Assembly: GCA_041287865.1 (NCBI GenBank) | Contig: JBGGMV010000066.1 | Location: 7,966 to 71,965 of the forward strand | Direction: 5' to 3' | Origin: Alphaproteobacteria bacterium | Lineage (GTDB): Bacteria > Pseudomonadota > Alphaproteobacteria > Micavibrionales > UBA2020 | DNA length: 64,000 nucleotides | Position numbers and translations under genes: made by a program | Notes under the pieces: model-generated | What the model was told of the DNA's origin: nothing | The model's input: the letters and a program-made list of their open reading frames with translations, nothing else | Databases searched by the model: none | In this document: piece by piece, positions 6,416-52,959 of the stretch | Position numbering within the stretch: the first letter of the stretch is position 1 | How the letters are laid out: every line of letters begins with the position of its first letter

Positions 6416-7032
6416 TCATCGCCGGATTAACAGGGTCTATCGGCATGGGCAAATCGACGGCATCGAACATGCTGCGCGAGATGGGCGTGCCGATCCACGA
6501 TTCAGACGCCACCGTGCATGAGCTGATGGGCAAGGGCGGCAAGGCTGTCGCGGCCATCGCCGCGCTCTGCCCCGAATGTCATGTCGATGGCGGCATCGAC
6601 CGCAAGATACTGGGCAAATATCTTTTCGCCGACCCCGCCCTGAAACAGGCGGTCGAAGATGTGCTCTTCCCGCTGGTCAAGCAATCGGCTGTTGATTTCA
6701 TCGCGCTGAAGAAAACCGAAGGCCATGCGCTGGCGGTGCTCGACGTGCCGCTGCTGTTCGAGGCCGGCTGGGACAAGATGGTCGATAAGGTCATCTGCGT
6801 CTCCGCCCCGCCCGAGGTGCAGAAGGCCCGCGTCATGGCCCGCCCCGGCATGACGGAGGAACGCTTCAACGCCGTGCTGAAGGCGCAGATGAGCGACGCC
6901 GACAAGCGCGCGAAATCGGACTTCATCATTGATACGGGCGTTGGTATGGATGATACGCGCGCGCAGTTGAAAAAACTGGTGGATACGCTGCGTCCTGCCG
7001 CGCGTCCGAACCCACCCGGAATTAAACCATGA
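6412..7032 (+). CDS. coaE: Dephospho-CoA kinase (copy 1)
   Basis: 206 aa, starting MIIAGLTGSIGMGKST (P-loop), with D-PLLFE. It sits in the conserved aroE-coaE-dnaQ arrangement. Confidence 0.9.
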   Translation: MIIAGLTGSIGMGKSTASNMLREMGVPIHDSDATVHELMGKGGKAVAAIAALCPECHVDGGIDRKILGKYLFADPALKQAVEDVLFPLVKQSAVDFIALKKTEGHALAVLDVPLLFEAGWDKMVDKVICVSAPPEVQKARVMARPGMTEERFNAVLKAQMSDADKRAKSDFIIDTGVGMDDTRAQLKKLVDTLRPAARPNPPGIKP

Positions 7033-7646
7033 TCGTAATCGGTATTACCGGCTCGATCGGCATGGGCAAGACCACGGCGGCCAACATGCTGCGCGAGATG
7101 GGCATCCCCGTGCACGACAGCGACGCCAGCGTGCACAAGCTGCTGGGCCCCGACGGCGCAGGCGTGGAAAGGGTCGCGCAGAAATTCCCCGAGGCGGTGC
7201 GCACCGACGAAGCCGGCCATAGCTATATCGACCGGCAGGCGCTGGGCAGAATAGTGTTTGGTGACCGCAATAAAAAACGCGAACTGGAAGAAATCCTGCA
7301 TCCGATCGTGCGCGCCGAAAGCGACGCCTTTAAAGAAGAAATGCGCCAAAAGGCCCATAAAATCATCGCGCTGGATATTCCCCTGCTGTTCGAGACGGGC
7401 GGCGAGAAACGGGTCGATGTAACCCTTTGCGTCACCGCGTCGAAAGACGAACAAAGGAAGCGCGTCATGGCGCGCCCTGGCATGACGTCCGATAAATTCG
7501 ATCGCATCGTCGCGGGCCAGCTGCCCGACGCCGAAAAACGCAAAAGGGCAGACTATGTGGTGGAAACGGATATCAGTCTCGATGAAACGCGCAAGCAGCT
7601 GCAAAAAATCATCGACCTTGTGCGCACGCAGCGCCGCCGCCGTTGA
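7029..7646 (+). CDS. Dephospho-CoA kinase paralog (copy 2)
   Basis: 205 aa, starting MIVIGITGSIGMGKTT, with LDIPLLFETG. It aligns with copy 1 along its whole length but is clearly diverged. It has a 4-nt overlap with copy 1. Confidence 0.85.
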   Translation: MIVIGITGSIGMGKTTAANMLREMGIPVHDSDASVHKLLGPDGAGVERVAQKFPEAVRTDEAGHSYIDRQALGRIVFGDRNKKRELEEILHPIVRAESDAFKEEMRQKAHKIIALDIPLLFETGGEKRVDVTLCVTASKDEQRKRVMARPGMTSDKFDRIVAGQLPDAEKRKRADYVVETDISLDETRKQLQKIIDLVRTQRRRR

Positions 7647-24387: not shown

Positions 24388-25500
24388 ATGTCTTCCGTTA
24401 CAAAAGATCAGGTTATGGAACAGTTGAAGACGGTGATCGAGCCCGCTTCCGGAAAAGACATCGTATCGCTCAAGATGGTGAGCGCGGTCGAGATCAAGGA
24501 CGGCGCGGCCTTTGTCACGCTCGAGGTCGACCCCGCCAAGGGCGCGGCGCTGGAACCGCTCCGTCAGGCGGCCGAATCCGCCGCCGCGAAAACCGCCGGC
24601 GTCACCAAGGCCACGGTGGTCATGACCGCTGAACGCAAATCGCCCCCGCCGCTGAACGTGCGGCAGAAACCGCAGCATCCTTCCACCCAGCACCGCATTT
24701 CGCAGCGCCCCGTGGCACCGGGCGTAAAACAAATCGTGGCCGTTGCTTCGGGCAAGGGCGGCGTCGGCAAATCGACTGTGTCCGCCAACCTCGCGCTTGC
24801 ACTTCATGCGCAGGGCAAGCGCGTGGGGCTGCTGGACGGCGATATCTACGGCTCCTCCATCCCTGTGATGCTGGGCCTGCGTGAAAAACCCGAAACCGAT
24901 GATGGGGATATGATCGTGCCGCCGGTCGCGCATGGCATCAAGTTCATGAGCATGGGATTCTTCGTCGAACCCGACGCGCCCGTCATCTGGCGGGGGCCCA
25001 TGGTTCATGCGGCAATACAACAGCTGCTCCGCGACGTCGCCTGGGGTGATCTCGACGTACTGGTGATCGACCTGCCGCCCGGCACGGGCGATGCGCAGCT
25101 TTCTCTCGCGCAATACGTGCCTGTCGCGGGCGCGGTGATCGTTTCCACCCCGCAGGATGTGGCGCTGAACGAGGCGCGCAAGGGGCTCAACATGTTTGCA
25201 AAAACCGGCGTGCCCGTGCTGGGCATGGTGGAAAACATGAGTTACCACAACTGCGCGTCCTGCGGCCACCGCGAGGATATCTTCGGCCATGGCGGGGTGA
25301 AAACCGCCGCGGCCCAGCTGGGCGTGGATTTCCTTGGTGAAATTCCGCTGCTCACCGCCATCCGTATCGCCGCCGACAATGGCAAGCCGATTGTGGTGGC
25401 CGATCCCGCGCATCCCGCCGCTGTTGCGTTCCGTGCTCTGGCGGACACTGTCTCCGCCAAGCTTGCCGTCGCGCCGCCCGCGAAGGTGAAGACGAAATAG
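24388..25500 (+). CDS. apbC: Fe-S cluster carrier ATPase Mrp/ApbC
   Basis: N-terminal DUF59-like region, a deviant Walker A (SGKGGVGKST) and CxxC (HNCASCGH). I placed the start at ATG 24388, 8 nt after AAGGGGA. Confidence 0.9.
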   Translation: MSSVTKDQVMEQLKTVIEPASGKDIVSLKMVSAVEIKDGAAFVTLEVDPAKGAALEPLRQAAESAAAKTAGVTKATVVMTAERKSPPPLNVRQKPQHPSTQHRISQRPVAPGVKQIVAVASGKGGVGKSTVSANLALALHAQGKRVGLLDGDIYGSSIPVMLGLREKPETDDGDMIVPPVAHGIKFMSMGFFVEPDAPVIWRGPMVHAAIQQLLRDVAWGDLDVLVIDLPPGTGDAQLSLAQYVPVAGAVIVSTPQDVALNEARKGLNMFAKTGVPVLGMVENMSYHNCASCGHREDIFGHGGVKTAAAQLGVDFLGEIPLLTAIRIAADNGKPIVVADPAHPAAVAFRALADTVSAKLAVAPPAKVKTK

Positions 25501-25631
25501 GGGCCCCTTCAGCAAGTTCCCGATTTTCTCCTTTATCTCCCGGAGCCGCATCCGGATTTTTTGCGCGGCGATGAAAAACATTCCCATACTTTAATGGTGA
25601 CGCATTTTTTTGAAGCTGTGCGAAGAGTTTT

Positions 25632-25668
25632 TGAAACGCTGTGAAACGGTTTGAAACGCTCTGAAACG
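25632..25668 (+). repeat. Phased direct repeats, block 1: 4 x TGAAACG at exact 10-bp spacing
   Basis: TGAAACG occurs at 25632, 25642, 25652 and 25662. The block ends ...TGAAACGCATAAGCGCG. Confidence 0.9.
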
Positions 25669-25757
25669 CATAAGCGCGAATGCAGAAATTTCCCAGCCGC
25701 ATAGGCCATTTTATATGTGCGTGTTTCAGGCGCCTTAAAGTGGGGTATCCGCTGACA

Positions 25758-25784
25758 TGAAACGCTCTGAAACGCTTTGAAACG
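25758..25784 (+). repeat. Phased direct repeats, block 2: 3 x TGAAACG at exact 10-bp spacing
   Basis: TGAAACG occurs at 25758, 25768 and 25778. The block ends ...TGAAACGGATAAGGCGG, parallel to block 1. An inverted copy (GTTTCA) lies at 25733-25738 and a near copy (CTGAAAAC) at 25803. Confidence 0.9.
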
Positions 25785-25957
25785 GATAAGGCGGAGACTC
25801 GCCTGAAAACAGTCACTTGCCGATCATCCGATAACAGGCAGGGCGTTCACATACCCTGAATTGTTCAATGTTTTCATTTGTATAAATAGTTTTTGGCGAA
25901 TTAAGCCAAGCTTAAACTTTTTTCCCTAATATAGCATCAGCAGCAAAAGGATTTCCC

Positions 25958-26740
25958 ATGGCCGGTGACAGCGACAAAACGAAACTTTTTCAGGCGGTTG
26001 CCTCCTATACGCTGGGCAAGGGAATCAAGCGTGACATGCTCCTTACCGATTACCGCGCAGTCGTGAGCGAGCTTGCGACCGGCAGCCGTGCGCCATTCTT
26101 CATGGGCGATATCGCTGATTACATGAACGAACATCCCGACCCCGATCCGGATTCCGACGCGGACAAACCGCTGCAGGCGCTTCAGGGCCTGCATGTTGAC
26201 AAGTTCCGTGTCAGCATCGTCATGGCTGAAGACGGCGGAAAGCGCGTATTCCTGCCGGTTTGTGAAGACATGCACAACGGGCGGCTGCTGGTGGTGGGAC
26301 CGGGCGGCGGAAACTATGGCGGCGCGCCGGTGGAAAAACTCGTTTATGTCGACGGAAGTTCCTCGACCGCCGTAGAGGCGATTAACAGTTTCATTGACAA
26401 AGGCATCCTCGAGCGCGGGGCTGTTGGCATCAAGCCGGCCAGCGCCCACAAAATCAATCAACACTTGGTACAGGCGATCAGTCTCGTTGCCGATTTATCG
26501 AGCCTCACCGAAGAGATCAACATGGCGCCCAAGGGCCAGTCGCCCGAGATGGTGCCTATGCTGTCAGGCACGACGCTGGGAAAATGTTTCCAGGCGGTCG
26601 CTGCCGGGCAAGCGGATGTGGACACCTGCATCATCGCGCGGCCCCACTTCAATCCCGAAGAGGCGGACGCCCAGGTGATGCAGGGCGTCACGTCAGACAT
26701 CAAGGTCGGCAAGCCTTTCAGTTTCAAGCCGAAGGCATGA
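25958..26740 (+). CDS. Hypothetical protein, paralog pair member P1
   Basis: 260 aa. It is similar to the next ORF (LFQAVASY/RFKAVATY; FRVSIVMAEDGGKRVFLPVCED/FKITIVQAEHNDKPVFLPVVED; LLVVGPG/VLVVAPG). The C-terminus is IKVGKPFSFKPKA. Confidence 0.7.
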   Translation: MAGDSDKTKLFQAVASYTLGKGIKRDMLLTDYRAVVSELATGSRAPFFMGDIADYMNEHPDPDPDSDADKPLQALQGLHVDKFRVSIVMAEDGGKRVFLPVCEDMHNGRLLVVGPGGGNYGGAPVEKLVYVDGSSSTAVEAINSFIDKGILERGAVGIKPASAHKINQHLVQAISLVADLSSLTEEINMAPKGQSPEMVPMLSGTTLGKCFQAVAAGQADVDTCIIARPHFNPEEADAQVMQGVTSDIKVGKPFSFKPKA

Positions 26741-26750
26741 GGAGATAAAC

Positions 26751-27461
26751 ATGGCAAACGAAACAGATATCAAAAGGCGATTCAAGGCGGTCGCGACTTA
26801 CGACACGGCCGAGCGGGTGGAAACCTTGCAGCTTGCGCCCGCGGGCAATGTGATCGCGGCGCTGGATTTTTACCGGCAGGATCTTTTCCTCACCGGCATC
26901 GACAAGGCGATAGGCACCCAGGCCACCGACCTGCCTAAAGGCGCGCTGGATATCCTGACGGGTCGCCATGTCAACGGCTTCAAAATCACCATTGTGCAGG
27001 CGGAGCATAACGACAAGCCGGTTTTCCTGCCCGTCGTCGAAGACTCCCTGCTGCAGGAAGTCCTTGTCGTGGCCCCCGGACCGCGCCCTGACAGTTGCGG
27101 CCCTGCTGTTGTCTATGTCGACAGCACCGACACCGACGCCTCTGCGCAGGTCAACGATTTCCTCATCCGCGGCGCGCGGCTGCGCGGCGAGCGCAGTTTG
27201 CTCGACCCTGAGGGCGCCAGGAATCTCATCGATGACATGATCACTGCTGTTTCAATGGTAGGCGACCTTCCGGAAACGCGGGCGATGGAAAATAACATCA
27301 CGATCGGCGCAGCCTTCGCGGAAGTCGCGCGCGGCAATTCCGGGATGGTCAACTACGTGATGGCCTGCAACCTTATCGACTACAAGGCCGAGGCGACCGA
27401 AGGAACGCAAAAGCCCATCGCCGTGCGCGGGCCGCTGTCCTTCAAGGGCAGGGTGGTATAG
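26751..27461 (+). CDS. Hypothetical protein, paralog pair member P2
   Basis: 236 aa, 10 nt after P1, with a GGAG RBS. The C-terminus is IAVRGPLSFKGRVV. Confidence 0.7.
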   Translation: MANETDIKRRFKAVATYDTAERVETLQLAPAGNVIAALDFYRQDLFLTGIDKAIGTQATDLPKGALDILTGRHVNGFKITIVQAEHNDKPVFLPVVEDSLLQEVLVVAPGPRPDSCGPAVVYVDSTDTDASAQVNDFLIRGARLRGERSLLDPEGARNLIDDMITAVSMVGDLPETRAMENNITIGAAFAEVARGNSGMVNYVMACNLIDYKAEATEGTQKPIAVRGPLSFKGRVV

Positions 27462-28460
27462 TCAGCGTTTTTTGTTGTTCTTTTTCGGGGCGGGTTTTGC
27501 CGTGCCCTCCGCGCGTTGCGCGGGTTTTTCCGTTTCGGGCTTGTCGACCTTCACCACGATATCGGGCTGGTCGTTGATGACCAGTTCGCCGCCCGCCAGC
27601 TGCTTGATCGTCGTGCCGTGGCCGCACATCTCGCTCACCTCGTTGAAGGATTTGATGGCGCGGTTGACGATGCGCTGATCCAGGTCTTCCTTCGCGGCGG
27701 CGACGATGAATTTCGCCAGCGCTTCGTGTTCTTCTTTTTCGGGCCCCGCGTCGCCGTATTCCTTCATCTCGTATTTCGTCATTTCCATGCCGGCGGCGGT
27801 ATTGGCGAGGAAAAGGCGTTTTGTATCCGGCTCCATGCCGCCAAGCTCCAGCAGGCGGACGTCTTCCTCCGGCGCCATCATCATGCGGTGCATTTCGTCG
27901 ACCATGCCGACCGTTTCAGGCTGGAACAGGCCGGTGATATCGTCGAAATTATCGGCGTCCATCAGCAGCGCCGCCGCCGTCATCGCGTCAACGCGCGCAT
28001 CGGGCATGCGGCCGCGATAGGTTTCCTCGATAATCCCGGCGGTAATCACATCGGCCATCGACAGGTTCGATACGTTTTCAAGCGCATCGCGGATTTCGCG
28101 GCGGCGCGGCAGCATGTGCCCTGCGGCGTCGAAGGTGCGTTCCTGCTCGGCGCGCATTTCCTGTTCCAGCTCGAACATGTCGTCGTCGCTCAAGGCTTCG
28201 TCGTCGTCGCCCAGCGGAATGTCGGTGCCGTCATCGTCGTCGGATTCAATGCTGATGCGGCGGCCCGTGCCGTCGATGCCGCGATAGGGCTCGAACTTCA
28301 GGTCGTCGGGGTTGAGTTTCGATTTGTCGGGTTCCGGTTTCGGCGGTTCGGGGTGCAGATCCTTGCCCACGTTCTCGTTATCATCAAACGAGAATTCCTT
28401 GCCCTTGCCGGTGGCGGCCTTGAAGGCTTTCTTCAGCTCTTTTTTGTCAGGCTCGGTCAT
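27462..28460 (-). CDS. Hypothetical acidic protein
   Basis: 332 aa, rich in D and E, with a Lys-rich C-terminus. It is on the same strand as, and downstream of, thyA-folA. Its stop codon abuts the P2 stop codon with zero spacer. Confidence 0.65.
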   Translation of the reverse strand: MTEPDKKELKKAFKAATGKGKEFSFDDNENVGKDLHPEPPKPEPDKSKLNPDDLKFEPYRGIDGTGRRISIESDDDDGTDIPLGDDDEALSDDDMFELEQEMRAEQERTFDAAGHMLPRRREIRDALENVSNLSMADVITAGIIEETYRGRMPDARVDAMTAAALLMDADNFDDITGLFQPETVGMVDEMHRMMMAPEEDVRLLELGGMEPDTKRLFLANTAAGMEMTKYEMKEYGDAGPEKEEHEALAKFIVAAAKEDLDQRIVNRAIKSFNEVSEMCGHGTTIKQLAGGELVINDQPDIVVKVDKPETEKPAQRAEGTAKPAPKKNNKKR

Positions 28461-32105: not shown

Positions 32106-32174
32106 TATTGCGCCAAAACTGGCAAAGCCCCTGAAACTACTGGTTTTTTAATCTTTTTCCGCTATATTGAAGAT

Positions 32175-32536
32175 GTCCGGAGCAATCCGGACTATGACGA
32201 TAAACGCGCTATAAAATAGGCGAGACGGACCTGGGGGCGGTACCCAGCGGCTCCACCATTCTTCAAAAGGATTTGCGAAAGTTGTCTTCGCATCCGGTAT
32301 GGGGCCGAAATAGGATCGACGTGCGTAGTAAAGATGGTTGCTTTCGTCCGGCATTGTTCCGCCGTTATCGGGCTACTTTTATAAATGCTAACGACAACAT
32401 GCCCGCAAGGGCTGAACTCCGCCTCGTTGCTTAACAGCGACAACAGCGAAGTTGGCATTCAATTCCTAAGCTAGCAATAGCATAGGTGGGGCGTGGGGGC
32501 AGGCCTAGCAACAGAACTGCCCCCATTTTCTTTTTT
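32175..32536 (+). ncRNA. ssrA: Two-piece (circularly permuted) tmRNA; the 5' boundary is approximate
   Basis: The acceptor piece ends ...CTGGGGGCGGTACCCAGCGGCTCCACCA at 32258. The coding piece starts GGGGCCGAAATAGGATCGACG at 32301. GGGGCCG pairs with CGGCTCC, including the G3:U wobble. The tag ORF at 32387-32434 encodes ANDNMPARAELRLVA*. It ends in a hairpin at 32495-32524 plus a U-tract. Confidence 0.8.
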
Positions 32537-40346: not shown

Positions 40347-40685
40347 TTGCTTAAGAAAATCAGGGAACAGATTTACGTTTTCTGGACAGGGCCGCTCAGG
40401 GCTCCCGGTTTCTTCGCCTTCGTGCTTTTATTTCCGCTGGCGGCGGCGTTTATCCTCAAGCTGGTGTTCAAAGCCTTCGGCTGGTCGCGTGACATCTCTT
40501 TTGATGCATCGGTGGTGCTGCTGCTTCCGCTTGTCTGCGGCTTGCCGCTGGTGCAGATCTTCCGGCTGCCACCGGCCTTTTTCCTGCCGAAGTGGCTGGT
40601 GACGGGGATTATCAGCATTGTTTATCTGGTGCTAATGTTCTGGCCCGTTGTCCTCATTTTCTCCGGATTTCCGGGCGACTTGTAA
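40347..40685 (+). CDS. Possible small membrane protein
   Basis: Track ORF 40266-40685 overlaps the permease in another frame. A TTG at 40347 after GGGGA would give about 112 aa with 3 hydrophobic helices. Both the start and the coding status are uncertain. Confidence 0.35.
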   Translation: MLKKIREQIYVFWTGPLRAPGFFAFVLLFPLAAAFILKLVFKAFGWSRDISFDASVVLLLPLVCGLPLVQIFRLPPAFFLPKWLVTGIISIVYLVLMFWPVVLIFSGFPGDL

Positions 40686-40858
40686 GGTCACCATCGCCCT
40701 CAATGATTTTCCTTAAGTAATTTCCACAATCTTGAAATAGTGCAGTATTTGCCTTTTGCGTAAAAACTGCTACGAGTCAGTACATTCCAATTCACAGAAG
40801 CTGAAGAGCCGCGCCAAGACGGCTCACGACACGGGATCATTTTAACGAGGAGAGCACA

Positions 40859-41722
40859 ATGCTATTCAAAGATTCAGGCCTGCCCAACAACAAGCTGGTC
40901 GAAGACGCCTTCAACCACAGCCGCACCAATGCGCAGGGCAACCAGAAAGAAGCGCTGAAAAGCTTCAAGCAGCAGATCGAGATGATCCACAGCCAGAACC
41001 TGATGATGCTCGACATGGAAAAAGACCAGGGCGGCATGAAGGACGACGAATACAAGCAGAACAAAATCGCGCTGGAACGCATGCGCGACGACCAGCTGAA
41101 AATGGGCCCGCAGCTGATCGCGCGCGAGCTGGACAATATGTTCGAAAAACGCCGCGTCGGCCCCGCAAAAATCGCGGCCAGCCACGCCGATGCAACCTCG
41201 CCTGAACTGGTCGCCGCGATCATGCTGATCGACTGCGTGCGCTCGCCGGTCGACTTCCAGAACATCAACGCGAAATTCGGCGCGAAGGTCTCGGGCCTGA
41301 TCGCCGAAGTGGTGCACATCGACGCTTACCCGTCGGAGCGCGACACGAACCTGTCGAAAGCCTCCGACGACGCCAAGCGCGCCTATCAGGCGCTGGTGAT
41401 CATGTCGCTCGACCAGATCGTCGACCAGATCAAGCGCTCGGCCAAAGAAAACCCGCTGCAGAAAATCATGTTCCCGCCCGGTCAGGAAGAACAGATCTAC
41501 GGCGACGTGAAAAACCTCTGGGGCACCGACAAGAAACTGGACGCCAAATTCCTCGACGCCTTCAACAAGGCATCGGATGCGGCTTCCTCGCCCTACAAGC
41601 TCGAAGTCGGCACCGACGGCTCGCTCGAACTCGTCAAGGGCACGGTTAAATCCGGCCCCGGCGTCAAGCCGCCGAAAAAAGGCCCCGGCGGCCCCGGCCC
41701 CGGCCCCGGCGACGTGTTCTAA
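40859..41722 (+). CDS. Hypothetical protein
   Basis: 287 aa with an AGGAGAG RBS. It is hydrophilic and probably helical, with a Gly/Pro tail (KKGPGGPGPGPGDVF). I recognise no family. Confidence 0.6.
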   Translation: MLFKDSGLPNNKLVEDAFNHSRTNAQGNQKEALKSFKQQIEMIHSQNLMMLDMEKDQGGMKDDEYKQNKIALERMRDDQLKMGPQLIARELDNMFEKRRVGPAKIAASHADATSPELVAAIMLIDCVRSPVDFQNINAKFGAKVSGLIAEVVHIDAYPSERDTNLSKASDDAKRAYQALVIMSLDQIVDQIKRSAKENPLQKIMFPPGQEEQIYGDVKNLWGTDKKLDAKFLDAFNKASDAASSPYKLEVGTDGSLELVKGTVKSGPGVKPPKKGPGGPGPGPGDVF

Positions 41723-41749
41723 GCACGGATTACAGACTAGGGAATGAAA

Positions 41750-41778
41750 AGCGCGGGATGAAAGTCCCGCGCTTTTTC
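41750..41778 (+). terminator. Rho-independent terminator
   Basis: Stem agcgcggga / tcccgcgct, followed by TTTTT. Confidence 0.75.
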
Positions 41779-42000
41779 TATTCACGCGCTGGCATAGCAT
41801 TTGTTTTTTGTGCAAGAAAAATTTTCACAAACTGAACAAGCGTTCATTCGCTTGAGTTGTCCACAGCTACGCTTTGAAATGACTCAGGAAAATATTTTCC
41901 CTTGCATTGGCGAATCGATTTTGCGATTGTGCGCCTCACACAACCCCCGCGGCATTCATGTCGGGGGAGACTACCGAAGCGAAGCTGGAGATTAGATTTC

Positions 42001-44043: not shown

Positions 44044-46002
44044 GTGGTTGGGTTTACCAAAATGGCTGAAGATGCTACCGCAAAAGCAGGCGCTGCCAAG
44101 CCAGCGCAACCGAAACCGTCGGGTGGTCTGTCGATGAACCCGTCGCCTGAGGATCTGCTTGTGCCGCCCTCACCCCCCGCACCCTCGGCGGCTCTGCCTG
44201 TGTCGACGGGCGCCGCGATCACCATTTCCGGCGGCGCCAACGCGCCCGCCATGCCCGGCGCGGCAGGCCCCGGCACAGCCCCCGGCGGCGGCAAACGTAT
44301 CGGCGACCGCCTGCTGGAACGCGGCCTCATCACCGAAGACCAGCTCAAGGTCGCCCTGCACGAAAAGAAAACATCTTCAAAGCTGATCGGCGAGATCCTT
44401 GTCGACCTCGGCTTCATTTCCTCGACCGCGCTGTCCGAATTCCTGTCTGAATCCACGGGCCTGCAGCAGTTCGACCCCAAGAAAACGATGCTCGACCCCG
44501 AAGCGCTCGAGATGATCCCGAAGAAGGAAGCGCAGAAGTACCAGATCCTGCCCGTCTCCGTCGACAAGGCCGCGAACCGCGCCGTCATCGCCATGGTCGA
44601 CCCCTACGACGTGGTGGCGCTCGACAAGCTGAAGCAGCTGCTGCCCAAATCCTGCATGATCGTGCCGCAGATCTGCCCGCCCGCGACGCTGGCGGACGCG
44701 ATCCACAAGGCTTACGGCGTCTCCACCTCGATCGACGCGATTTTGAAGGAGCTTGCGGGCGACGCTTCGGCCGCGAAAAAGAACCTCGATACGCTGTCGG
44801 AGGCTGAATCTTATAGTCACCCGCTCGTGCGCCTTGTCAACGCGCTGATCTTCGAAGCCGTGAAAATGGGCGCGTCCGACTTGCACTTCGAGCCCGAAGA
44901 AAACTTCATCCGCCTGCGCTGGCGCATCGACGGCGACCTGATCACCTCGCACACGCTGCACAAGGAATACTGGAGCGGCATCTGCCAGCGCCTGAAGATC
45001 ATGGCCGAGCTGAACATCGCCGACAAATATTCGCCGCAGGACGGCCGCTTCAACCTGAACATGGGCGCGAGGGAAGCCGACTTCCGCGTCTCCTGCCTGC
45101 CGACCGTGCATGGCGAGAACATCGTGCTGCGCGTGCTCGACAAATCGGCGTCCATCGTGCCGCTGACCAAGCTCGGCTTCTCCGAACACAACCTGCGCAT
45201 CATCAAGAAGGCGCAGTCCCGCCCCGAAGGCATCATCATCGTCACGGGCCCCACCGGCTCAGGGAAAACAACGACGCTCTACTCGATGCTGAACGACGTG
45301 AACACGCCCGACGTGAACATCCAGACGCTGGAAGACCCGGTCGAATATAACCTGGGCATGATCAGGCAGTCGCACGTGAAAGAGGGCGGCGGTTTCACCT
45401 TCGGCGAGGGCGTGAAAGCGCTCCTGCGCCAGGACCCTGACATCATCTTCATCGGCGAGGTCCGCGACCTCGTGACCGGCGAGCAGGCGCTGAAAGCCGC
45501 CATGACCGGCCACCAGGTCTATACCTCGCTCCACACCAACGACTGCTTCGGCGCCGTGCCGCGCCTGGTCGACATGGGCCTGAAGCCCGGCATGATTTCG
45601 GGCGCGATTATCGCAACCTTTGCGCAGCGACTTGTCAGAAAGCTTTGCCAGAAGTGCAAGAAACCTGCGGCGGCCACGCCCGAAGAATGCAAGATGCTGA
45701 GGGACGGCCCCGACGGCAAGGCAATCGACCCTGCCAACCCGCCCACGATCTACCATCCCGGCGGCTGCCCGGATTGCAATAATACCGGCTTCAAGGGCCG
45801 TATCGCCTGCGTCGAGATCCTTTACTTCGACGACGATATGGACGCGCTGGTGGCGCAGGGCGCGCACAAGGCCGAAATGAAGAAAGTGGCGCTCACCAAG
45901 GGCTTCAAGAGCATGCTCGACGACGGCATCGTCAAGATCTACGAAGGCACGACCAGCCTTGATCAGGCCAGCAAGTCCCTGAACTTCGCCGACCGCCTCT
46001 AG
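44044..46002 (+). CDS. pilB: Type IV pilus assembly ATPase, PilB/GspE family, with MshEN/T2SSE_N-type N-domain
   Basis: Carries Walker A (GPTGSGKTTTLYS), Asp/His boxes and a C-terminal tetracysteine (CQKC...CPDC). The N-domain reads RIGDRLLERGLITEDQLKVAL / LIGEILVDLGFISSTAL. It has an Ala/Pro-rich leader of about 75 aa. GTG start, 11 nt after GGAGGA. Confidence 0.9.
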   Translation: MVGFTKMAEDATAKAGAAKPAQPKPSGGLSMNPSPEDLLVPPSPPAPSAALPVSTGAAITISGGANAPAMPGAAGPGTAPGGGKRIGDRLLERGLITEDQLKVALHEKKTSSKLIGEILVDLGFISSTALSEFLSESTGLQQFDPKKTMLDPEALEMIPKKEAQKYQILPVSVDKAANRAVIAMVDPYDVVALDKLKQLLPKSCMIVPQICPPATLADAIHKAYGVSTSIDAILKELAGDASAAKKNLDTLSEAESYSHPLVRLVNALIFEAVKMGASDLHFEPEENFIRLRWRIDGDLITSHTLHKEYWSGICQRLKIMAELNIADKYSPQDGRFNLNMGAREADFRVSCLPTVHGENIVLRVLDKSASIVPLTKLGFSEHNLRIIKKAQSRPEGIIIVTGPTGSGKTTTLYSMLNDVNTPDVNIQTLEDPVEYNLGMIRQSHVKEGGGFTFGEGVKALLRQDPDIIFIGEVRDLVTGEQALKAAMTGHQVYTSLHTNDCFGAVPRLVDMGLKPGMISGAIIATFAQRLVRKLCQKCKKPAAATPEECKMLRDGPDGKAIDPANPPTIYHPGGCPDCNNTGFKGRIACVEILYFDDDMDALVAQGAHKAEMKKVALTKGFKSMLDDGIVKIYEGTTSLDQASKSLNFADRL

Positions 46003-46124
46003 GCCAGCACCCCGCACGCCGTGACTCTGTATATTCCCGCCCTATATCTATTCCGGGGGCGAATATATTTCGTCGTGAGACCCGAATACAAGTGCTTGGT
46101 TTACCTTCATAATTGGTGTAACAC

Positions 46125-46142
46125 TATAAGGTGTGTTTTGGG
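46125..46142 (+). promoter_or_regulatory. Cluster cis-motif copy (TATAAGGTGTGTTTTGGG), upstream of pilC
   Basis: The 12-mer TATAAGGTGTGT is identical to 53882-53893. It lies 36 nt before the pilC ATG. Confidence 0.55.
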
Positions 46143-46177
46143 TCGTATGACACTACAGGGGGCGTTCGTCTTTAATC

Positions 46178-47392
46178 ATGCCTAAGTTCAGTTACAGGGC
46201 TATCAATCCGAAGGGCCGGCCGGTGCGGGGCGTTGTGAACGCCGCCAACGAGACGGATTTGTTCAATCGCTTGCAAGAAACGGGCATGAACCTGCTCGAC
46301 TGCAAGGAGATGAGCGAAAAATCCAACAAGCTGGCGGCCCTGACCGCCAAGAAGGTCAAGGTCCGCGACCTGATCCAGATGTTCGTCCACCTCGAACAGC
46401 TGCAGAAGGCCGGGGTTCCCTTGCTGGATTCAATTACCGACGTGCGCGACACCGCTGAATCGACCCGCCTGCGCGACATCATGAGCGATATTTACGCCGA
46501 AGTGACGGCGGGCTCCTCGTTCTCCAACGCGCTGGCCAAGCACCCCGGCACCTTCCCCGCCATCTTCATCTCGCTCATCAACGCGGGCGAGGAAACGGGT
46601 AACCTCACCAACTCGTTCGTGCAGGTCATCAAGCACCTGAAGTGGACGGACGCGATGGACACCAAGGTGAAAAAGGCGACGCGCTATCCCAAGGTTCTCT
46701 GCGTGGTCGTCGTCGGCGTTATTTACGTGATGCTGGGCCACGTCGTGCCCGAGGTCGTCGGATTCCTGCGCAACATCGGGCAGGAACTGCCGCCGATCAC
46801 GCAGGCGCTGATCTCCACCTCCGACTTCGTGGTGGGCTATTTCGGCTATATCATCGGCGTGATCATCCTCATCATGGTCATCCTGCGCGTCGGGCGCCTG
46901 ATGTCGGAGGATTTCAAGTACCGCACCGACTACATCGCGCTGCGCATGCCGGTGATGGGCAACCTGATCCGCAAAATCTCGCTCTCGCGCTTCTGCCAGA
47001 CCTTCGGCGTCCTCTTCACCTCGGGTCTCGAGATCCTGAAATGCCTCGAGGCCGCGAAGCAGACCTCGGGCAACCTCGTCATCACCGAGGCGCTGGAATC
47101 GGTCAAGACGCAGGTGCAGGAAGGCTCGGGCCTTTCCCATGCGCTCAACTCCTCGGGCGAATTCCCGTCGCTGGTCGTGCGCATGGTCAAGATCGGCGAG
47201 GAATCGGGTAACCTGACGGGCGTTCTGGAACAGGTGTCGGAATTCTACGACAAGGACGTCAACGAAGCCGTCGACGCGATGATCCAGATGATCGAACCCG
47301 CGCTGACCGTCGTGCTCGGCGGCATGCTGCTGTGGATCGCGGCCGCCGTCTTCGGCCCCGTTTACGACAGCTTCGGCAAGATGGGCGGATAA
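46178..47392 (+). CDS. pilC: Type IV pilus platform protein, PilC/GspF family
   Basis: 404 aa with two GspF repeats and 3 TM helices, including the (ESGNL) motif. Confidence 0.9.
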   Translation: MPKFSYRAINPKGRPVRGVVNAANETDLFNRLQETGMNLLDCKEMSEKSNKLAALTAKKVKVRDLIQMFVHLEQLQKAGVPLLDSITDVRDTAESTRLRDIMSDIYAEVTAGSSFSNALAKHPGTFPAIFISLINAGEETGNLTNSFVQVIKHLKWTDAMDTKVKKATRYPKVLCVVVVGVIYVMLGHVVPEVVGFLRNIGQELPPITQALISTSDFVVGYFGYIIGVIILIMVILRVGRLMSEDFKYRTDYIALRMPVMGNLIRKISLSRFCQTFGVLFTSGLEILKCLEAAKQTSGNLVITEALESVKTQVQEGSGLSHALNSSGEFPSLVVRMVKIGEESGNLTGVLEQVSEFYDKDVNEAVDAMIQMIEPALTVVLGGMLLWIAAAVFGPVYDSFGKMGG

Positions 47393-47395
47393 CGC

Positions 47396-49033
47396 ATGGT
47401 TGCGCTGGGCGGCGGCAAAAGGGTTCTTCTGGTCGGCGGCGAGGGCGTTGTGCTTTACGCGCCGCACGGCCGCGGCATGGAGCGCGAAACATCCATCTCG
47501 TGGGAAGTGCCCAACTTCGACCAGCAGCTGGCCGAGGCGCTTTCCGCCAAGAACCAGAGCAAGTCTGTCGTGGTGCTTTTCGACGGCACCGACCAGACCT
47601 ACCGCCGCGAGGAACTGGCCGCGAAACTTTCCATCATCGACCGCCCGAAATTCGTGAAGCGGAAACTCGAACTCGCCTTCCCGAGCTACCCGATCCGCGC
47701 CTCGCTTGAAATCAAGCCGCCCAAGAAAAAAGGCCGGCAGCCCAAGGGCGCCAAGACCGAGCTGCCCTCGTTCCTTTTCGTGGCGCTGCCCGAAACCGAG
47801 CAGCTCGACCGCATCGGCAACGCGATGTACGAGGCGGGCGTGCCCGTCGCGGGCTTCGGCCTGCTGCCGCTTGAATCGATGGGTCTCGTCAACGAGATGT
47901 CCGACAAGGTTTTTGGCGGCCGCGGCAAGAAATCGCGCTGGGCGGTGCTGGTCGGCCAGCATGAAACCGGCGGCCTGCGTCAGGTTGTGATTAAAGACGG
48001 CAACCTGGCGCTGACGCGCCTTACCCCGACGTCGGAAGCCGGCACCAGCGGCACGGGCTGGGTGGAAGAAGTCACGCGCGAATTGAAGGCAACGCTCACC
48101 TATATCTCGCGCTTCGGCTACAGCAACGACGACGGTCTCGACATCGTGGTCGTCTGCGGCGACGTGGAAAAACAGTTTTTCGACACCCGCGCCATCCCGG
48201 TCACCAATTTCCAGTGCGTCAACGTGTCGGAAGCGATGCGCCATATCGGCCTGCGTTCCTTCGGCATGGAGAAAAGCAATTTCGCCGACGCGCTGCACGC
48301 CGCCTGGGCGTCGCGCAAGACCGGGCTCAAGCTCGCGGTCAAGGTTCCCTCCATCCAGCGCATCATGGCGCCGCGCCTTGCCGCGCGCGTCGGCTCGGTG
48401 CTGCTCGCGCTCTCCATCCTCGGCCTGATGGGCTTCACCGCGCAGGGCTTCCAGGAATACCGCTCGCTCGAGGAAGAAATCGCCGGCAAGCAGAACCGCA
48501 AGACGATGCTCGACCGCGAATACGAGCAGGAGGCGAAGATCTTCGACACGCTGGCGGTCAAGCCCGATGTCGTCAAGGCCGCGCTGTCGGTCAAGAAACT
48601 GCTGGAAACCAACAGCGTCGACCTGCGCCCGATCCTGCATTCGCTGAAAAACACGCTGCCATCTGACGTTAGAATCGAGAACCTGAATATCGAGCACAAC
48701 GCCTCCAGCCACCTCAAGGTCGCCGATGCCTCCAGCGGCGCCGGGCTGTTCGGCGTGCCGGAAGAAGTCACCGACCCCGGCAAGGTGCGCATCAACCTTT
48801 CCTATTCGCTGCCGGACAACCTGATCCTCGAGCAGAAAGTGCTGCGCTCGGAAGACCTCCTGAAGAAACTGAAAACGGCCTTCCCGGGCTTCGAGGTCTC
48901 GCTGAAGAAGCAATTCGGCGGCGTGGAACGCACCGGCTCGGCCGTGGACACACTGGGTAGCCCTGCGCCGACTCCCGGCGGCGGCATGCTGGACCTGGCT
49001 GAAATCGAACTCAGGGGAGCGCCCCTCAAATGA
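47396..49033 (+). CDS. Pilus assembly protein, PilM-like cytoplasmic domain fused to a TM helix and PilN-like periplasmic domain
   Basis: 545 aa. The first ~330 aa look cytoplasmic, followed by one TM helix (VGSVLLALSILGLMGFTAQGF), a coiled coil and a periplasmic domain. It is positioned after pilC and before a PilO-like gene. Confidence 0.65.
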   Translation: MVALGGGKRVLLVGGEGVVLYAPHGRGMERETSISWEVPNFDQQLAEALSAKNQSKSVVVLFDGTDQTYRREELAAKLSIIDRPKFVKRKLELAFPSYPIRASLEIKPPKKKGRQPKGAKTELPSFLFVALPETEQLDRIGNAMYEAGVPVAGFGLLPLESMGLVNEMSDKVFGGRGKKSRWAVLVGQHETGGLRQVVIKDGNLALTRLTPTSEAGTSGTGWVEEVTRELKATLTYISRFGYSNDDGLDIVVVCGDVEKQFFDTRAIPVTNFQCVNVSEAMRHIGLRSFGMEKSNFADALHAAWASRKTGLKLAVKVPSIQRIMAPRLAARVGSVLLALSILGLMGFTAQGFQEYRSLEEEIAGKQNRKTMLDREYEQEAKIFDTLAVKPDVVKAALSVKKLLETNSVDLRPILHSLKNTLPSDVRIENLNIEHNASSHLKVADASSGAGLFGVPEEVTDPGKVRINLSYSLPDNLILEQKVLRSEDLLKKLKTAFPGFEVSLKKQFGGVERTGSAVDTLGSPAPTPGGGMLDLAEIELRGAPLK

Positions 49034-49683
49034 AACTGATCGGCCTTAAACGCGCCATCATCCTTGCCGTGCTGTTCGCCATCAACCTGGCGATCGCGGC
49101 GGTCTATTTCCTGCAGGTCATGCCGATGGCCGAGGAATCGGCGCGCAACCTCGACAACATCAACAGCCAGATCTCCGCGACCAGCCAGAAAATATCCTCG
49201 ATCAAGGCGGATCTTGAAACCTTCAAGACCACGCTGCCGCAGTTCCGCGAGCTGGAGGCCAAGGGCTTCACGCTGCCGCAGGACCGTTTCCGCATGAGCC
49301 GCGACCTCGACGCCGTGCGCCTGAAGGCCGAGCTCGGTGGCTTCAAGTTCACCATCAACGACATCCGGAAGGTCGACAACCCCGACATCGACCCGACGAC
49401 GATGCAGCTGATCTACCGCCGCATCAAGGTCGACAACGTCGAATCGCTGCTCGACACCAACTTCTTCACCTTCATCGACGCGATGCAGCGCGACTTCCCG
49501 ACGCATACCCGCTTCCAGTCGATGCAGATGCGGCGCAAGGACCCGCTGAACGGCGCCGCGCTGGCCAAGATCCAGAAAAAGGAACGCGTCGACCTGATCA
49601 CGGCCGAAGCGCAGTTCGACTGGCTGACGATCATTCCGAAGGCAACCGAAGAATCGGGCACCGGCCCGACGGGAGGCCTGTAA
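49030..49683 (+). CDS. PilO-like pilus assembly protein
   Basis: 217 aa with an N-terminal TM helix (AIILAVLFAINLAIAAVYFL), a coiled coil and a C-terminal domain. It has a 4-nt overlap with the upstream gene. Confidence 0.6.
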   Translation: MKLIGLKRAIILAVLFAINLAIAAVYFLQVMPMAEESARNLDNINSQISATSQKISSIKADLETFKTTLPQFRELEAKGFTLPQDRFRMSRDLDAVRLKAELGGFKFTINDIRKVDNPDIDPTTMQLIYRRIKVDNVESLLDTNFFTFIDAMQRDFPTHTRFQSMQMRRKDPLNGAALAKIQKKERVDLITAEAQFDWLTIIPKATEESGTGPTGGL

Positions 49684-49684
49684 G

Positions 49685-50443
49685 ATGAAGGCCGCCGCCC
49701 CGAAGCCGACCGCCACGAAATACGGCTGGATCATCGCCGCCGCCTGCCTTGCCGTGCTGGGCCTGTCGCCCGTGGCGCGCGCGCAGCTGGGCGATGTCGG
49801 CATTGCTTCCGGCGCCGCCGGCATGATGAACAACAACCCGATTGCGCAGGGCGCGCAGCAGACGCAGGCTGCCGCGGCGCTTGCCGCCGGCCAGCCCGCT
49901 GCCGCAGTTGCGCCCGGCACGCCGCCGGCTGCGGCTGCTCCGGCAGGAGCGCCTGCTGCCGCAGCGCCCGCAGGGGCACCCGTCGCCGCAGCAGCGCCGG
50001 CAACAGCCGCTGCCGCGATGTCCGTGCCGGCGCCCGAGGCACCGGCGGTCACCGACCTGAAATCGCCTTTCGTGCAGTCGCTTTTCTTCTCGCCGCAGGA
50101 CATCATTGCGATCAAGAAAGCTTCCGAAACGCGCGGACCGATCGACACCACAGGCGGTGTGCAGACGCAGACGCCCGTGATCCCGATGAACCGCTACATT
50201 GCCGTTTCCGGCATCAGCTATAAATCGCCCGACAACTGGGTGGTCTGGATCAACGGCCGCAAGGTCGTCAAGGGCGGCGAAGGCGTGCTGAAGGAACTGG
50301 TCGAGATCAAGCCGCAGAAAGATTACGTCGACCTGCTCTGGTTCGATATCGGCCTCAACGGCACGATCAAGATCAAGATGCGCCCCAACCAGACCTATTA
50401 TATAGTGCCGGGCCTGCTCCTGCCGGGGGTTGCACACGAATGA
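49685..50443 (+). CDS. PilP-like / unknown periplasmic pilus component with Ala/Pro-rich linker
   Basis: 252 aa with a signal/TM segment (WIIAAACLAVLGLSPVARA), a long A/P-rich region and a small C-terminal beta-rich domain. Confidence 0.55.
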   Translation: MKAAAPKPTATKYGWIIAAACLAVLGLSPVARAQLGDVGIASGAAGMMNNNPIAQGAQQTQAAAALAAGQPAAAVAPGTPPAAAAPAGAPAAAAPAGAPVAAAAPATAAAAMSVPAPEAPAVTDLKSPFVQSLFFSPQDIIAIKKASETRGPIDTTGGVQTQTPVIPMNRYIAVSGISYKSPDNWVVWINGRKVVKGGEGVLKELVEIKPQKDYVDLLWFDIGLNGTIKIKMRPNQTYYIVPGLLLPGVAHE

Positions 50444-51210
50444 CGGCACTCGCCCAGACCATGCCCGATCCCGCCATTCCGGCGGTGAGCATCAAGCAGG
50501 TATCCGCCGGCTACAAGCACGGCATGGTGATCGAGGACATCGATTTCGAGGTCAGGCAGGGCGAAACCTTCGGCCTGATCGGGCTGAACGGCGTCGGCAA
50601 GACGACGCTCATCAAGATCATGCTGGGCCTGATGGAGGCCAAGAAGGGTTCGGTCGAGATTTTCGGCGGCAAGTCGCTGGACGCCGCCACCAAGAAAAAA
50701 ATCGCCTACCTGCCCGAAAAATTCGAGCCGCCGCCGTTCCTGTCGGCGCTCGAATTCGTCAAATTCTCGCTCGACCTCTACAAGCAGCCTTTCTCGGAAG
50801 AAGCGGTGATGAAAGCCGCTGACCGTGTGTCGCTGACGCGCGCCGCGGTCAAGCGCCGCGTGTCGACCTATTCGAAAGGCATGCGCCAGAAGACGGGGCT
50901 GATCGGCACCTGGCTGACCGGCTGCCCGCTGCTGATACTGGACGAGCCGATGAGCGGCCTCGATCCTCTCGCCCGCGTGCTGGTGAAGGACGAGATCGCC
51001 GCCTGCCGCAAGGCCGGCATGACCGTTTTTTTATCGTCGCACATCCTCGCCGACATGGACGAAATTTGCGACCGCATCGCCGTCATCCACGACGGCCGCC
51101 TGCGCTTCACCGGCACGCCTGCCGAGCTGAAGGCGCAGACGAAGCAGGAATACCTCGAGCGGGCATTCCTGAAAACAATCGAAGGTTCAACAAGGGTCTA
51201 TGAATCATGA
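50440..51210 (+). CDS. ABC transporter ATP-binding protein embedded in the pilus operon
   Basis: Has Walker A (GLNGVGKTT), the signature YSKGMRQ and Walker B (LLILDEPMSGLD). It has 4-nt overlaps with both neighbouring genes. Confidence 0.88.
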   Translation: MTALAQTMPDPAIPAVSIKQVSAGYKHGMVIEDIDFEVRQGETFGLIGLNGVGKTTLIKIMLGLMEAKKGSVEIFGGKSLDAATKKKIAYLPEKFEPPPFLSALEFVKFSLDLYKQPFSEEAVMKAADRVSLTRAAVKRRVSTYSKGMRQKTGLIGTWLTGCPLLILDEPMSGLDPLARVLVKDEIAACRKAGMTVFLSSHILADMDEICDRIAVIHDGRLRFTGTPAELKAQTKQEYLERAFLKTIEGSTRVYES

Positions 51211-52955
51211 CAAATAACGATGACAACCTCGATGAAGGTTTCGAAGACCTCGACGCCGCGGCGGACGCCCCCCCCGGTGACGAACCCGTTCCCGGTGAAG
51301 AAGGCGGCGATGCGCTGGCCGCGCCCACGCGCAGGATGACCTCCGGCGGGGGCTCCAGGAAAAACCTCTTTATCCTGCTGGGCCTTGTCGGCGTTCTCGC
51401 CGTTGGCGGCGGCGGCGCTTATATGTTCCTGATGGGAGGCGATGATCTTGCGCCCGCAACGCCTGTCGCGGCCGTGCCGGCCGCCGCGCCTGCAACCGAA
51501 GCGACTTTCGCAGCGCCCACCGACCCCAATGCCACGCCGCTCGTCGATCCGCTGGCGACTGCGCCCGCGCCCGGCAACCTGTCTGACACGCGTCCCGATG
51601 CCATGGCCACGGCACCGGGCGCCATTCCCGGCATGGACGCCGCCCCCGCGACCGATCCCGCCGCTGTCGCGGTTGTTGATCCCGCTGCTCCCGCTGCTCC
51701 CGCAGCTCCCGCAGCGACTGATCCTGCCGCTGCTGTCGCCGTCGTTGATTCTGCTACCGTTGCGGTTGTCGATCCTGCCGCCACGCCGCCGGTTGATACC
51801 GCGACCGCGACGACGACCGTCACGACAACAGTCGAAACCGCCGCGAACCCCGCCGTCGACCCTGCCACTGTGCCGCCGGCTGACGCCGCTGCGCCGCCGG
51901 TAGATACGGCAGCTGCGCCGCCCGCCGATCTCGGCGCGCCGCCGGCAGAAGAAAATATAGCTGTGCCGCTCAACGCGGTGCCGCCGGCTGACGTTGCCGC
52001 CGTGCCCGCCGACCCGGCGACAACCGCGCCGGTCACGCCCGCGCCCGGCGAACAGCAGCCCGACCTGCCCATGCCCGAACAGGCGCAGGTGCCCGCGACG
52101 ACGACCACCACCACGGTCACCACCACCGTCACGCAGCCCACCGGCACGCCTGTCACGCCCGCCACGGGCGGCCCCAGCGCGGCCGAACTGGCCATCACGC
52201 AGAACGCCGCAATCCTCGACCAGCTGGCGCAGCCCGGCACGTCAACGCGGCCCTTCGATCCCGCCGCGCCCACGCCCAGCCAGACCAATGCGATCAAGGA
52301 AGTGGACAAGCTGCTGCAGCAGGAAGCCATCATCCGTCCGCTGCCGCCCTCGTGGCTGCAGGTCAGCAAGAACCGCGACGCGGGCGACATGGACAGCCGC
52401 CTCACCGCCGCGCGCTCCGCGCTGGCGCAGAACCGCAACTCCGCCGCCCTGCAGCTCTTCACCGAGCTGAGCAGCAAATACCCGAAGGATACCCGCATCC
52501 TGATGGGCCGCGCCGTGGCGCTGCAGAAACTGGGACAAAACGAGGAAGCGCTGGGCGCCTACGAAGCCGTGCTGATCGCCAATCCCAAGAACCTGGAAGC
52601 GCTGACCAACATGCTGGGCCTGCTGAAAGGCAAGGATCCGCAGCTGGCCGTCTCCAAGCTGACCGAGCTGCATGAAACCTATCCCTACCAGGCCGATATC
52701 ACGGCGCAGCTGGGCGTCGCCCACGGGCAGGCCGGCGAATACGAACAGGCGCTCCGCTATCTCGACATGGCCGAGGCGATGGACCCCGGCAGCGCGTACA
52801 TCCTCTATAACAAGGCCGTGCTGCACGACAAAATGGGCCATTCCGCGCAGGCGGGCGACCTGTACCGCCAGCTGATCCGCATGGCGGCCGACGGCTCGCT
52901 CGACGAAAACCTGCCGCTCGAGCACATCAAGAGACGCCTGACAGTCCTGCGCTAG
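51207..52955 (+). CDS. TPR-repeat pilus-associated protein with long Ala/Pro/Thr/Val low-complexity region
   Basis: 582 aa. It has an acidic N-terminus, one TM helix (LFILLGLVGVLAVGGGGAYMFLM), a low-complexity stretch of about 270 aa (VVDPAA repeats and TTTVTTTV twice) and C-terminal TPRs (ALQLF.., EEALGAYEAVL.., YEQALRYLDMA..). Confidence 0.8.
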   Translation: MTNNDDNLDEGFEDLDAAADAPPGDEPVPGEEGGDALAAPTRRMTSGGGSRKNLFILLGLVGVLAVGGGGAYMFLMGGDDLAPATPVAAVPAAAPATEATFAAPTDPNATPLVDPLATAPAPGNLSDTRPDAMATAPGAIPGMDAAPATDPAAVAVVDPAAPAAPAAPAATDPAAAVAVVDSATVAVVDPAATPPVDTATATTTVTTTVETAANPAVDPATVPPADAAAPPVDTAAAPPADLGAPPAEENIAVPLNAVPPADVAAVPADPATTAPVTPAPGEQQPDLPMPEQAQVPATTTTTTVTTTVTQPTGTPVTPATGGPSAAELAITQNAAILDQLAQPGTSTRPFDPAAPTPSQTNAIKEVDKLLQQEAIIRPLPPSWLQVSKNRDAGDMDSRLTAARSALAQNRNSAALQLFTELSSKYPKDTRILMGRAVALQKLGQNEEALGAYEAVLIANPKNLEALTNMLGLLKGKDPQLAVSKLTELHETYPYQADITAQLGVAHGQAGEYEQALRYLDMAEAMDPGSAYILYNKAVLHDKMGHSAQAGDLYRQLIRMAADGSLDENLPLEHIKRRLTVLR

Positions 52956-52959
52956 GCCC

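Follow-up and report, generated by a model that had tools for sequence, protein, structure and literature searches.

The TGAAACG array between apbC and P1

The element described here lies in a 64 000-nucleotide stretch of DNA (the window) from the metagenome-assembled genome (MAG) of an uncultured ‘Alphaproteobacteria bacterium’, within the 457 bp gap between apbC, which ends at 25500, and an uncharacterized gene, P1, which starts at 25958. It is built around seven exact copies of the heptamer TGAAACG, all on the + strand and arranged head-to-tail in two blocks. Block A (25632–25668) consists of four copies that begin at 25632, 25642, 25652 and 25662 and are separated by the linkers CTG, GTT and CTC; block B (25758–25784) consists of three copies that begin at 25758, 25768 and 25778. 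Every step within a block is exactly 10 bp. With an 89 bp spacer between the blocks (25669–25757), the start of block B follows the start of block A by 126 bp, corresponding to 12.0 turns of 10.5 bp, and the array begins 326 bp and ends 174 bp before the P1 ATG. An initial annotation had reported the seven positions, their 10 bp register, the distance between the blocks and a placement ∼170–330 bp upstream of P1, all of which were confirmed on the sequence.

The arrangement is far from random. The phased pair TGAAACGNNNTGAAACG occurs five times in the window, always within the array, against 0.00 occurrences expected from 100 dinucleotide-preserving shuffles, and Tandem Repeats Finder calls a period of 10 for both blocks. 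TGAAACG itself has 12 further copies in the 64 kb, which is about the chance level. Aligned over 33 nt, block B as a whole and the final three repeats of block A agree at 88%. A coding function was rejected because the 10 bp period shifts the frame at each repeat and a spacer of 89 or 90 nt (the two lengths seen among homologues) breaks any frame.

Several smaller features on the same strand accompany the repeats. Upstream of block A, alignments delineate a 5′ flank box CATACTTTAATGGTGACGCATTTTT (CAT..TTTA..TGAC..ATTTT) at 25585–25609, and the match of the window to the profile described below begins at 25588. The spacer opens with CATAAGC (25669–25675) and contains a hairpin-capable pair, CGCATA and TATGTG (25698–25703 and 25714–25719), which is followed by GTGTTTCAG and, at 25740–25748, by GTGGGGTAT. 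The inverted GTTTCA within GTGTTTCAG lies at 25723–25728 and not at 25733–25738, as initially annotated. The distal flank of block B (25785–25810) comprises GATAAGG, GACTC (25796–25800) and a degenerate copy of the repeat, CTGAAAAC (25803–25810), the near copy already noted at 25803. The ending shared by the two blocks had been recorded one base out and reads TGAAACG(C/G)ATAAG followed by SSSG (CGCG or GCGG). To the left, the intergenic region is limited by the intrinsic terminator of apbC (25540–25564, + strand), a hairpin CCGGAGCCGCATCCGG followed by a T-run that was identified by a terminator scan.

Conservation and geometry of the element

Homologues of the element were found in six other assemblies. 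Three of these (L144, L142 and L141) are syntenic relatives that were reached through contigs encoding proteins of the P1 family, and three (L020, L136 and L137) belong to a Micavibrio-labeled lineage. L144 is fully syntenic (hflKC-apbC-element-P1-P2-324 aa-folA-thyA) and L142 is closely similar to it, while the L141 contig begins inside block A and shares the P-folA-thyA side. L020, from a MAG labeled Micavibrio sp., was the only full-length homologue among the listed loci with three phased TGAAAC, and L136 and L137 were the two homologous hits among 21 matches returned by a search of metagenome contigs for the two-block pattern. An nhmmer profile of the core detects seven loci with E values of 1e-46 to 1e-64 and otherwise bare repeats alone. 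Exact-sequence look-up of ThyA and FolA found no strain-level relatives.

Phased repeats of this kind are common as a type, as three phased TGAAAC were recovered from more than 118 loci of species-representative genomes in many phyla. One such conserved element, of another kind and unrelated to the array of the window, recurs in many Oscillospiraceae/Clostridia MAGs as GGTTTCA-N(8–10)-TGAAACC-N3-TGAAACC-N3-TGAAACCGTATCATTATTATCAA, i.e. one inverted and three phased direct copies (among the matches listed: L005, L006, L014, L017, L021, L023–L025, L034, L038, L050, L070, L080, L082, L089, L090, L108 and L116). Dispersed multi-copy phased TGAAAC elements are present in a single Verrucomicrobiia MAG, SMAG_U9932 (L011, L027, L037, L049, L056 and L105), and dispersed copies also occur in the MAG OH_CBB_136 (L063, L076, L079 and L092), where three direct copies are followed by an inverted copy that is hairpin-capable with the third. 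A search for a common neighbor of the phased TGAAAC arrays in Hyphomonas sp. 34-62-18 and ‘Proteobacteria bacterium OH_CBB_136’ gave no lead.

The conservation of the element follows the repeats and their geometry. Of the 38 heptamers aligned from six independent sequences, 35 are exact TGAAACG and 31 are followed by C (position 8), while the three linker positions vary both within and between genomes. This pattern indicates selection on each heptamer and not on the 10 bp unit, and argues against the copies being recent products of slippage. Block A has four units, in gapless in-register alignment, wherever a contig covers it completely. In all seven copies of the element the intra-block steps are 10 bp and block B starts 126 or 127 bp downstream of the start of block A; the spacer, which is only partly conserved in sequence, has a length of 89 nt (four homologues) or 90 nt (two). 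The spacer hairpin changes in arm sequence and loop length while the distance between the blocks stays fixed. Such constancy of total length in a spacer that changes internally would be predicted if duplex DNA were constrained by helical phase or looping.

The element core is 63–66% identical between the two lineages and 82% identical between the window and L144. Besides the repeats, the conserved islands comprise CATAAGC immediately behind block A, two spacer motifs (TTTTCAG and ATGCGCGTTTTTG) and GTGGGGTAT (ACCCCAC) shortly ahead of block B; the 5′ flank box CATACTTTAATGGTGACGCATTTTT is also present in the alignments of L144, L142, L020 and L136. Another constant feature is a GANTC site, which lies 32–41 bp after the start of the first block B unit (B1) in all six independent homologues and is kept in L141 despite a change from GACTC to GAATC. 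GANTC is about threefold depleted in the window (90 sites against 279 ± 14 expected). Such depletion is a signature of alphaproteobacteria that carry CcrM, in which intergenic GANTC sites are tied to regulation (PMC3973325), and the count in the window is consistent with the presence of a CcrM-type methyltransferase in the host.

Past the block B side, a + strand gene follows at 170–240 bp in four independent contexts (the window, L144/L142, L141 and L137). The flanking genes differ between lineages: in L137 the element lies upstream of an FkbM methyltransferase gene, and in L020 its neighbors are a macA-like gene on one side and, on the other, the 3′ end of a convergently transcribed GDSL lipase gene. 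Other FkbM loci that were inspected for further copies from the Micavibrio lineage (L148 and L149) carry no array. In L020, the − strand carries a terminator-like hairpin with a T-run (6683–6698) in the interval that separates the element from the macA-like gene start; it might belong to a short transcript or leader that runs leftward and is specific to this genome.

The P genes and the genomic neighborhood

In the window, the nearest transcription unit downstream of the array consists of P1 (25958–26740, + strand) and P2 (26751–27461, + strand), a paralogue with 32% identity to P1. It is followed by a convergent gene for a 332-residue protein, folA and thyA, and hflKC, degP and miaA lie upstream of the array. 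P1, P2 and the 332-residue protein have no match in Pfam, NCBIfam or PADLOC. Among 1.84 billion proteins, the P family counts only 47 representatives, each of them from an uncultured member of the Alphaproteobacteria. An AlphaFold model of P1, calculated from a 29-sequence family alignment, is confident (predicted local distance difference test 82, predicted template-modeling score 0.79) and has no match in the PDB by Foldseek at E ≤ 0.001.

The P genes stand out from their surroundings by their divergence. Between the window and L144, protein identity is 88% for ApbC, 92% for HflK, 85% for the 332-residue protein, 92% for FolA and 97% for ThyA, compared with only 27–33% for P1 and P2. DNA identity drops from ∼75–85% to 40–50% exactly at the P1 start codon and recovers near 27560–27590, inside the 3′ end of the convergent gene; in L141 a single P gene occupies the P1–P2 position. 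Sharp divergence boundaries between conserved flanks mark P1–P2 (25958–27590) as a sharply bounded hypervariable cassette that lies behind a conserved regulatory region.

A proximal promoter region of P1 is located outside the array at 25901–25934 (+ strand) and consists of TTAAGCCAAGCTTAA (TTAA-N7-TTAA, CtrA-box type) followed by the −10-like CCCTAATATAG. The TTAA-N7-TTAA at 25901–25915 is the sole one in the 64 kb, against 0.17 expected. The same box followed by CC(C/T)TAATAT precedes P-family genes in L141 (260–295), L144 (3221–3255), L143 (3143–3176) and L145 (2003–2036), and a shorter TTAA-N7-TTGA variant precedes the gene in L146. By comparison with the known CtrA consensus, we infer that the P1 promoter, which the initial annotation had not recorded, is of the CtrA type.

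How closely the array belongs to the P genes can be judged from these loci. The array is present in L144, L142 and L141, syntenic relatives that carry P genes; its absence from such relatives, which the initial annotation had set as grounds for refutation, is thus not observed. The P-family genes of L143, L145 and the syntenic pair L146/L147 have no array, however, and the copies in L020 and L137 stand beside unrelated genes. The array is therefore not a property of the P genes, and a specific link to P1/P2 is not supported.

A proposed docking platform for an oligomeric protein and competing explanations

A pitch of one helical turn, a common strand, conserved heptamers with free linkers and a distance between the blocks of whole turns argue that the element is read as duplex DNA by a protein that binds head-to-tail and bridges the two clusters, and the + strand gene past the block B side in four contexts makes an upstream regulatory module the simplest functional reading. 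We therefore favor, with about even confidence, a cooperative, looped DNA docking platform of ∼230 bp (25585–25820). An oligomerizing sequence-specific protein would place one monomer on each TGAAACG(C) and fill each block cooperatively along one face of the helix. With the blocks 12 turns apart, the bound proteins would touch and would loop or wrap the 89–90 bp spacer into a single nucleoprotein complex, which would act as an upstream regulatory module for a promoter on the block B side. In the window genome the predicted target is the CtrA-box promoter of the P1–P2 operon, ∼110–140 bp downstream, and the conserved GANTC nearby may link the complex to methylation by CcrM, and through it to the cell cycle. 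The conservation profile fits this proposal, as the element is conserved like the neighboring housekeeping genes, whereas the adjacent P genes are not. The array had initially been likened to a cooperative operator, an iteron or another nucleoprotein array; its non-random phasing, preserved heptamers and fixed geometry uphold the general idea, while an iteron fails every origin test that was run (see below).

The likeliest class of binder would be an OmpR/PhoB/SARP-type winged-helix protein, as such proteins are known to read direct repeats of 6–7 bp at a pitch of 10–11 bp. OmpR/PhoB regulators occupy contiguous arrays of four to six half-sites, use a distal site for looping at ompF and, in the case of Escherichia coli OmpR, recognize half-sites that contain GAAAC/GTTAC. 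Their sites (pho boxes, ompF F1–F3 with the distal F4, and tor boxes) resemble the element in having head-to-tail half-sites one turn apart; they differ in being usually paired and located at or over the −35 region, whereas the element is far upstream and has one odd-numbered block. Winged-helix domains of this family bind tandem half-sites in head-to-tail orientation (PMC3973317). SARP-type operators are a closer precedent still. At pimM, the SARP-type regulator PimR recognizes heptameric direct repeats arranged as a triplet with a doublet set apart from it, some in 10 bp units, on one DNA face and away from the −35 box (PMC5930380). SARP and SARP-LAL operators share with the element 7 bp direct repeats with less conserved spacers of 3–4 bp (units of 10–11 bp) and a division into a main and a secondary cluster; their monomers bind cooperatively on one DNA face, which for the element is a prediction from sequence. 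Overlap with the −35 region is not obligatory in the SARP-LAL precedent (PMC5930380); around the 4 + 3 copies of the element, no promoter-like hexamers were detected in or next to the blocks. The differences lie in the heptamer (CGGCAAG or TCGAG-type compared with TGAAACG), in the 4 + 3 copies placed 126 bp apart, in the larger distance to the promoter and in the host, which is an alphaproteobacterium and not an actinomycete. A search of the literature by motif found no description of the TGAAACG motif, the 4 + 3 layout at 12 turns, the linked GANTC or the clade. The element is of a kind already known, with a motif that is not assignable to a named regulator.

Several observations weigh against a docking platform. 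The copy number in block B is odd and somewhat variable, the third unit being CGAAACG in L144/L142 and lost in L136, which is a poor fit to strict binding of a dimer to half-sites. More than 110 bp separate the array from the closest promoter-like signal (the CtrA-box region at 25901–25934), and a scan detected no σ70-like promoter inside the element. The block B side of L020 meets the 3′ end of the convergent gene and offers no obvious target. The 64 kb window contains no second array site and hence no evidence of a regulon. None of the ∼60 open reading frames of the window scanned against Pfam encodes a response regulator, a SARP or another winged-helix (Trans_reg_C) protein; the sole regulator among them belongs to the AraC family (59882–60979) and lies 34 kb away. 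Finally, the + strand hairpin and T-run in the spacer and the sequences complementary to the repeats would be more directly explained by RNA. Promoters of the σ70, σ32, σ54 and extracytoplasmic function type (the last with TGAAAC as −35) were also considered inside the element and rejected, as the spacings fitted by eye were inconsistent across homologues.

The RNA explanation, which we consider unlikely, holds that the element is transcribed and that the repeats act at the RNA level. In one version, transcription of a small RNA or leader would begin either before block A or immediately behind it and would stop at the spacer hairpin and T-run (∼25698–25729), and the UGAAACG repeats of this RNA would bind or titrate an oligomeric RNA-binding protein, either in attenuation of the TRAP or HutP type or as a sponge; in another, the complementary UUUCAG and GCGUUU islands would pair with the repeats to form an antiterminator. 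A + strand hairpin directly ahead of the T-run is indeed possible at the same place in every homologue with differing arms (GCGCATG/CATGCGC in L136, GCGCGT/ATGCGC in L020, GCGTAT/ATATGC in L141 and CGCATA/TATGTG in the window), and it fails the terminator scan in every one of them, the loops being 10–15 nt long or the stems GC-poor and the T-run of the window amounting only to TGTTTC. In the RNAalifold structure, the final two repeats pair with the two conserved islands of the spacer, and a single pair within the hairpin shows compensatory change, but the consensus fold is weak (−5.6 kcal mol−1), its covariation term is unfavorable and most pairs are invariant and thus uninformative. The occurrence of the element in unrelated gene contexts is what would be expected of an independent RNA gene. 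No promoter-like signal was detected upstream, and Rfam gave no relevant match for 24500–27000 at E ≤ 1 or for L020, L136, L137, L144 and L141 at E ≤ 0.1. Moreover, an exact 10 nt pitch and a block distance fixed at 126–127 nt despite a variable loop are not expected of an RNA sponge.

We regard as rather improbable a chromosome-structural role, in which the element would either serve as a single-copy centromere-like or organizing site, to which an adaptor that forms filaments or rings would bind, or be a cluster of iterons linked to replication. ParR–parC of R1 and TubR–tubC of pBtoxis consist of two clusters of direct repeats with a pitch of about one turn, on which the adaptor forms a higher-order complex that autoregulates the adjacent operon. 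The two-cluster layout of the element is that of type II/III partition centromeres, and its single copy in 64 kb, with flanking genes that differ between lineages, would also suit a structural site. In contrast to these centromeres, the element is chromosomal, has no plasmid or phage similarity and lies beside unrelated genes depending on the genome; no par (parM/parR), tub (tubZ/tubR) or rep gene is adjacent, and P1 has no match to a DNA-binding fold. Iterons share with the element only direct repeats in phase: they are 17–22 bp long with a pitch of about two turns and occur together with DnaA boxes, a rep gene and AT-rich DNA. No such companions were found here, where repeats of 7 bp follow one another at 10 bp.

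Specific identities in this category were rejected individually. The heptamer resembles a parS half-site, but the window contains no palindromic parS for ParB, the best match having three mismatches and lying elsewhere. An origin or iteron identity was discarded because there is no DnaA-box-like 9-mer within 9 kb, no AT-rich unwinding element and no rep or dnaA neighbor, and because the cumulative GC skew has no consistent V at 25.7 kb and tracks gene orientation. A blastn comparison of 25585–25830 with plasmid and phage collections returned nothing, which removes a plasmid or phage origin. A scan of viral contigs for three phased TGAAACG gave 15 loci, none of which is homologous.

Some features of the window are of interest for replication in their own right. 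The segment 4704–12477 encodes an RP001-like kinase/pyrophosphorylase, aroE, coaE, a second CoaE-like open reading frame (7029–7646), a DUF1223 protein, a dnaQ-like exonuclease, secB, FxsA, a Tim44-like protein and mltA. The kinase/pyrophosphorylase-aroE-coaE-dnaQ-secB-Tim44-mltA set flanks the origin in Caulobacter and Rickettsia, and the window may therefore be origin-proximal, a position that would suit a structural site; the replication origin itself was not located in the window. Three of the six DnaA-box-like 9-mers of the window (TTATCCTCA, TGATCCACA and TTGTCCACA) fall within 1.4 kb (40450–41865), close to a divergence in gene orientation from − strand genes up to 37.7 kb to + strand genes from 44 kb.

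A recombination site, active or a relic, is very doubtful. Here the repeats would be arm-type integrase or excisionase sites and the inverted repeat of the spacer the core, linked to exchange of P1–P2. The sharp divergence boundaries of the P1–P2 segment beside the element are in keeping with exchange, but the boundary falls at the P1 ATG, 170 bp past block B, and not at the element; neither block is disrupted or rearranged in any of the seven genomes, and homologous elements exist without the P cassette. Phased TGAAACG triplets directly beside tRNA-like 3′ ends do occur in the unrelated viral contigs L150 and L163. Around the element, no integrase, excisionase or transposase is encoded within ±10 kb, and ARAGORN finds no tRNA in the window, the only RNA gene detected being a tmRNA gene 6.4 kb away. 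This tmRNA gene (32166–32525) is of the permuted, two-piece type and encodes the tag peptide ANDNMPARAELRLVA. Other viral contigs (L152, L154, L158–L160 and L164) have phased TGAAACG triplets close to a second paired direct repeat (TTGTTCCGT), and the viral layouts, including those of L150 and L163, look like the att-site arm repeats of integrative elements. A neutral 10 bp minisatellite without function, for which the abundance of phased TGAAAC triplets in bacterial genomes could speak, is effectively refuted by the conservation pattern, since copy number, register, block distance and flank boxes are kept across lineages that are ∼65% identical and linkers that differ between copies exclude recent duplication.

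Significance of the element

A docking platform of the geometry proposed here could also work as a switch, a more specific idea that we consider a long shot. In the Pap switch, Lrp binds two groups of three sites, and the GATC sites are ∼100 bp apart. The element resembles it in having two clusters of sites at a similar distance (∼100–130 bp) and a conserved target of methylation beside one cluster; it differs in having one GANTC and not one per cluster, in a methylase that would be CcrM and not Dam, and in that there is no evidence of phase variation. In such a clade-specific, possibly single-copy switch, an oligomer would bridge both arrays and occupancy of block B would gate the access of CcrM to the GANTC. 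If this were true, the element would be a CcrM-based heritable or cell-cycle-gated ON/OFF device, analogous to Pap/Lrp/Dam, that governs P1/P2 in a probably predatory alphaproteobacterium. A predatory lifestyle is suggested by the Micavibrio-labeled relatives together with a type IV pilus/type II secretion-like cluster at 44044–63232, which encodes a PilB-like ATPase, a PilC-like platform protein, a TPR protein, a prepilin peptidase, two PilT-like ATPases, a secretin and two N-methyl pilins.

We know of no transcription factor sites from this uncultured, small-genome clade of alphaproteobacteria. Comparative data alone define the element unusually well, by its fixed 10 bp pitch, its 12-turn distance between blocks and its conserved methylation site, and it is a ready bait for identification of the regulator in the host clade. 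As it fronts a gene pair that is far more variable than its surroundings, the element may help to explain how this cassette is controlled.

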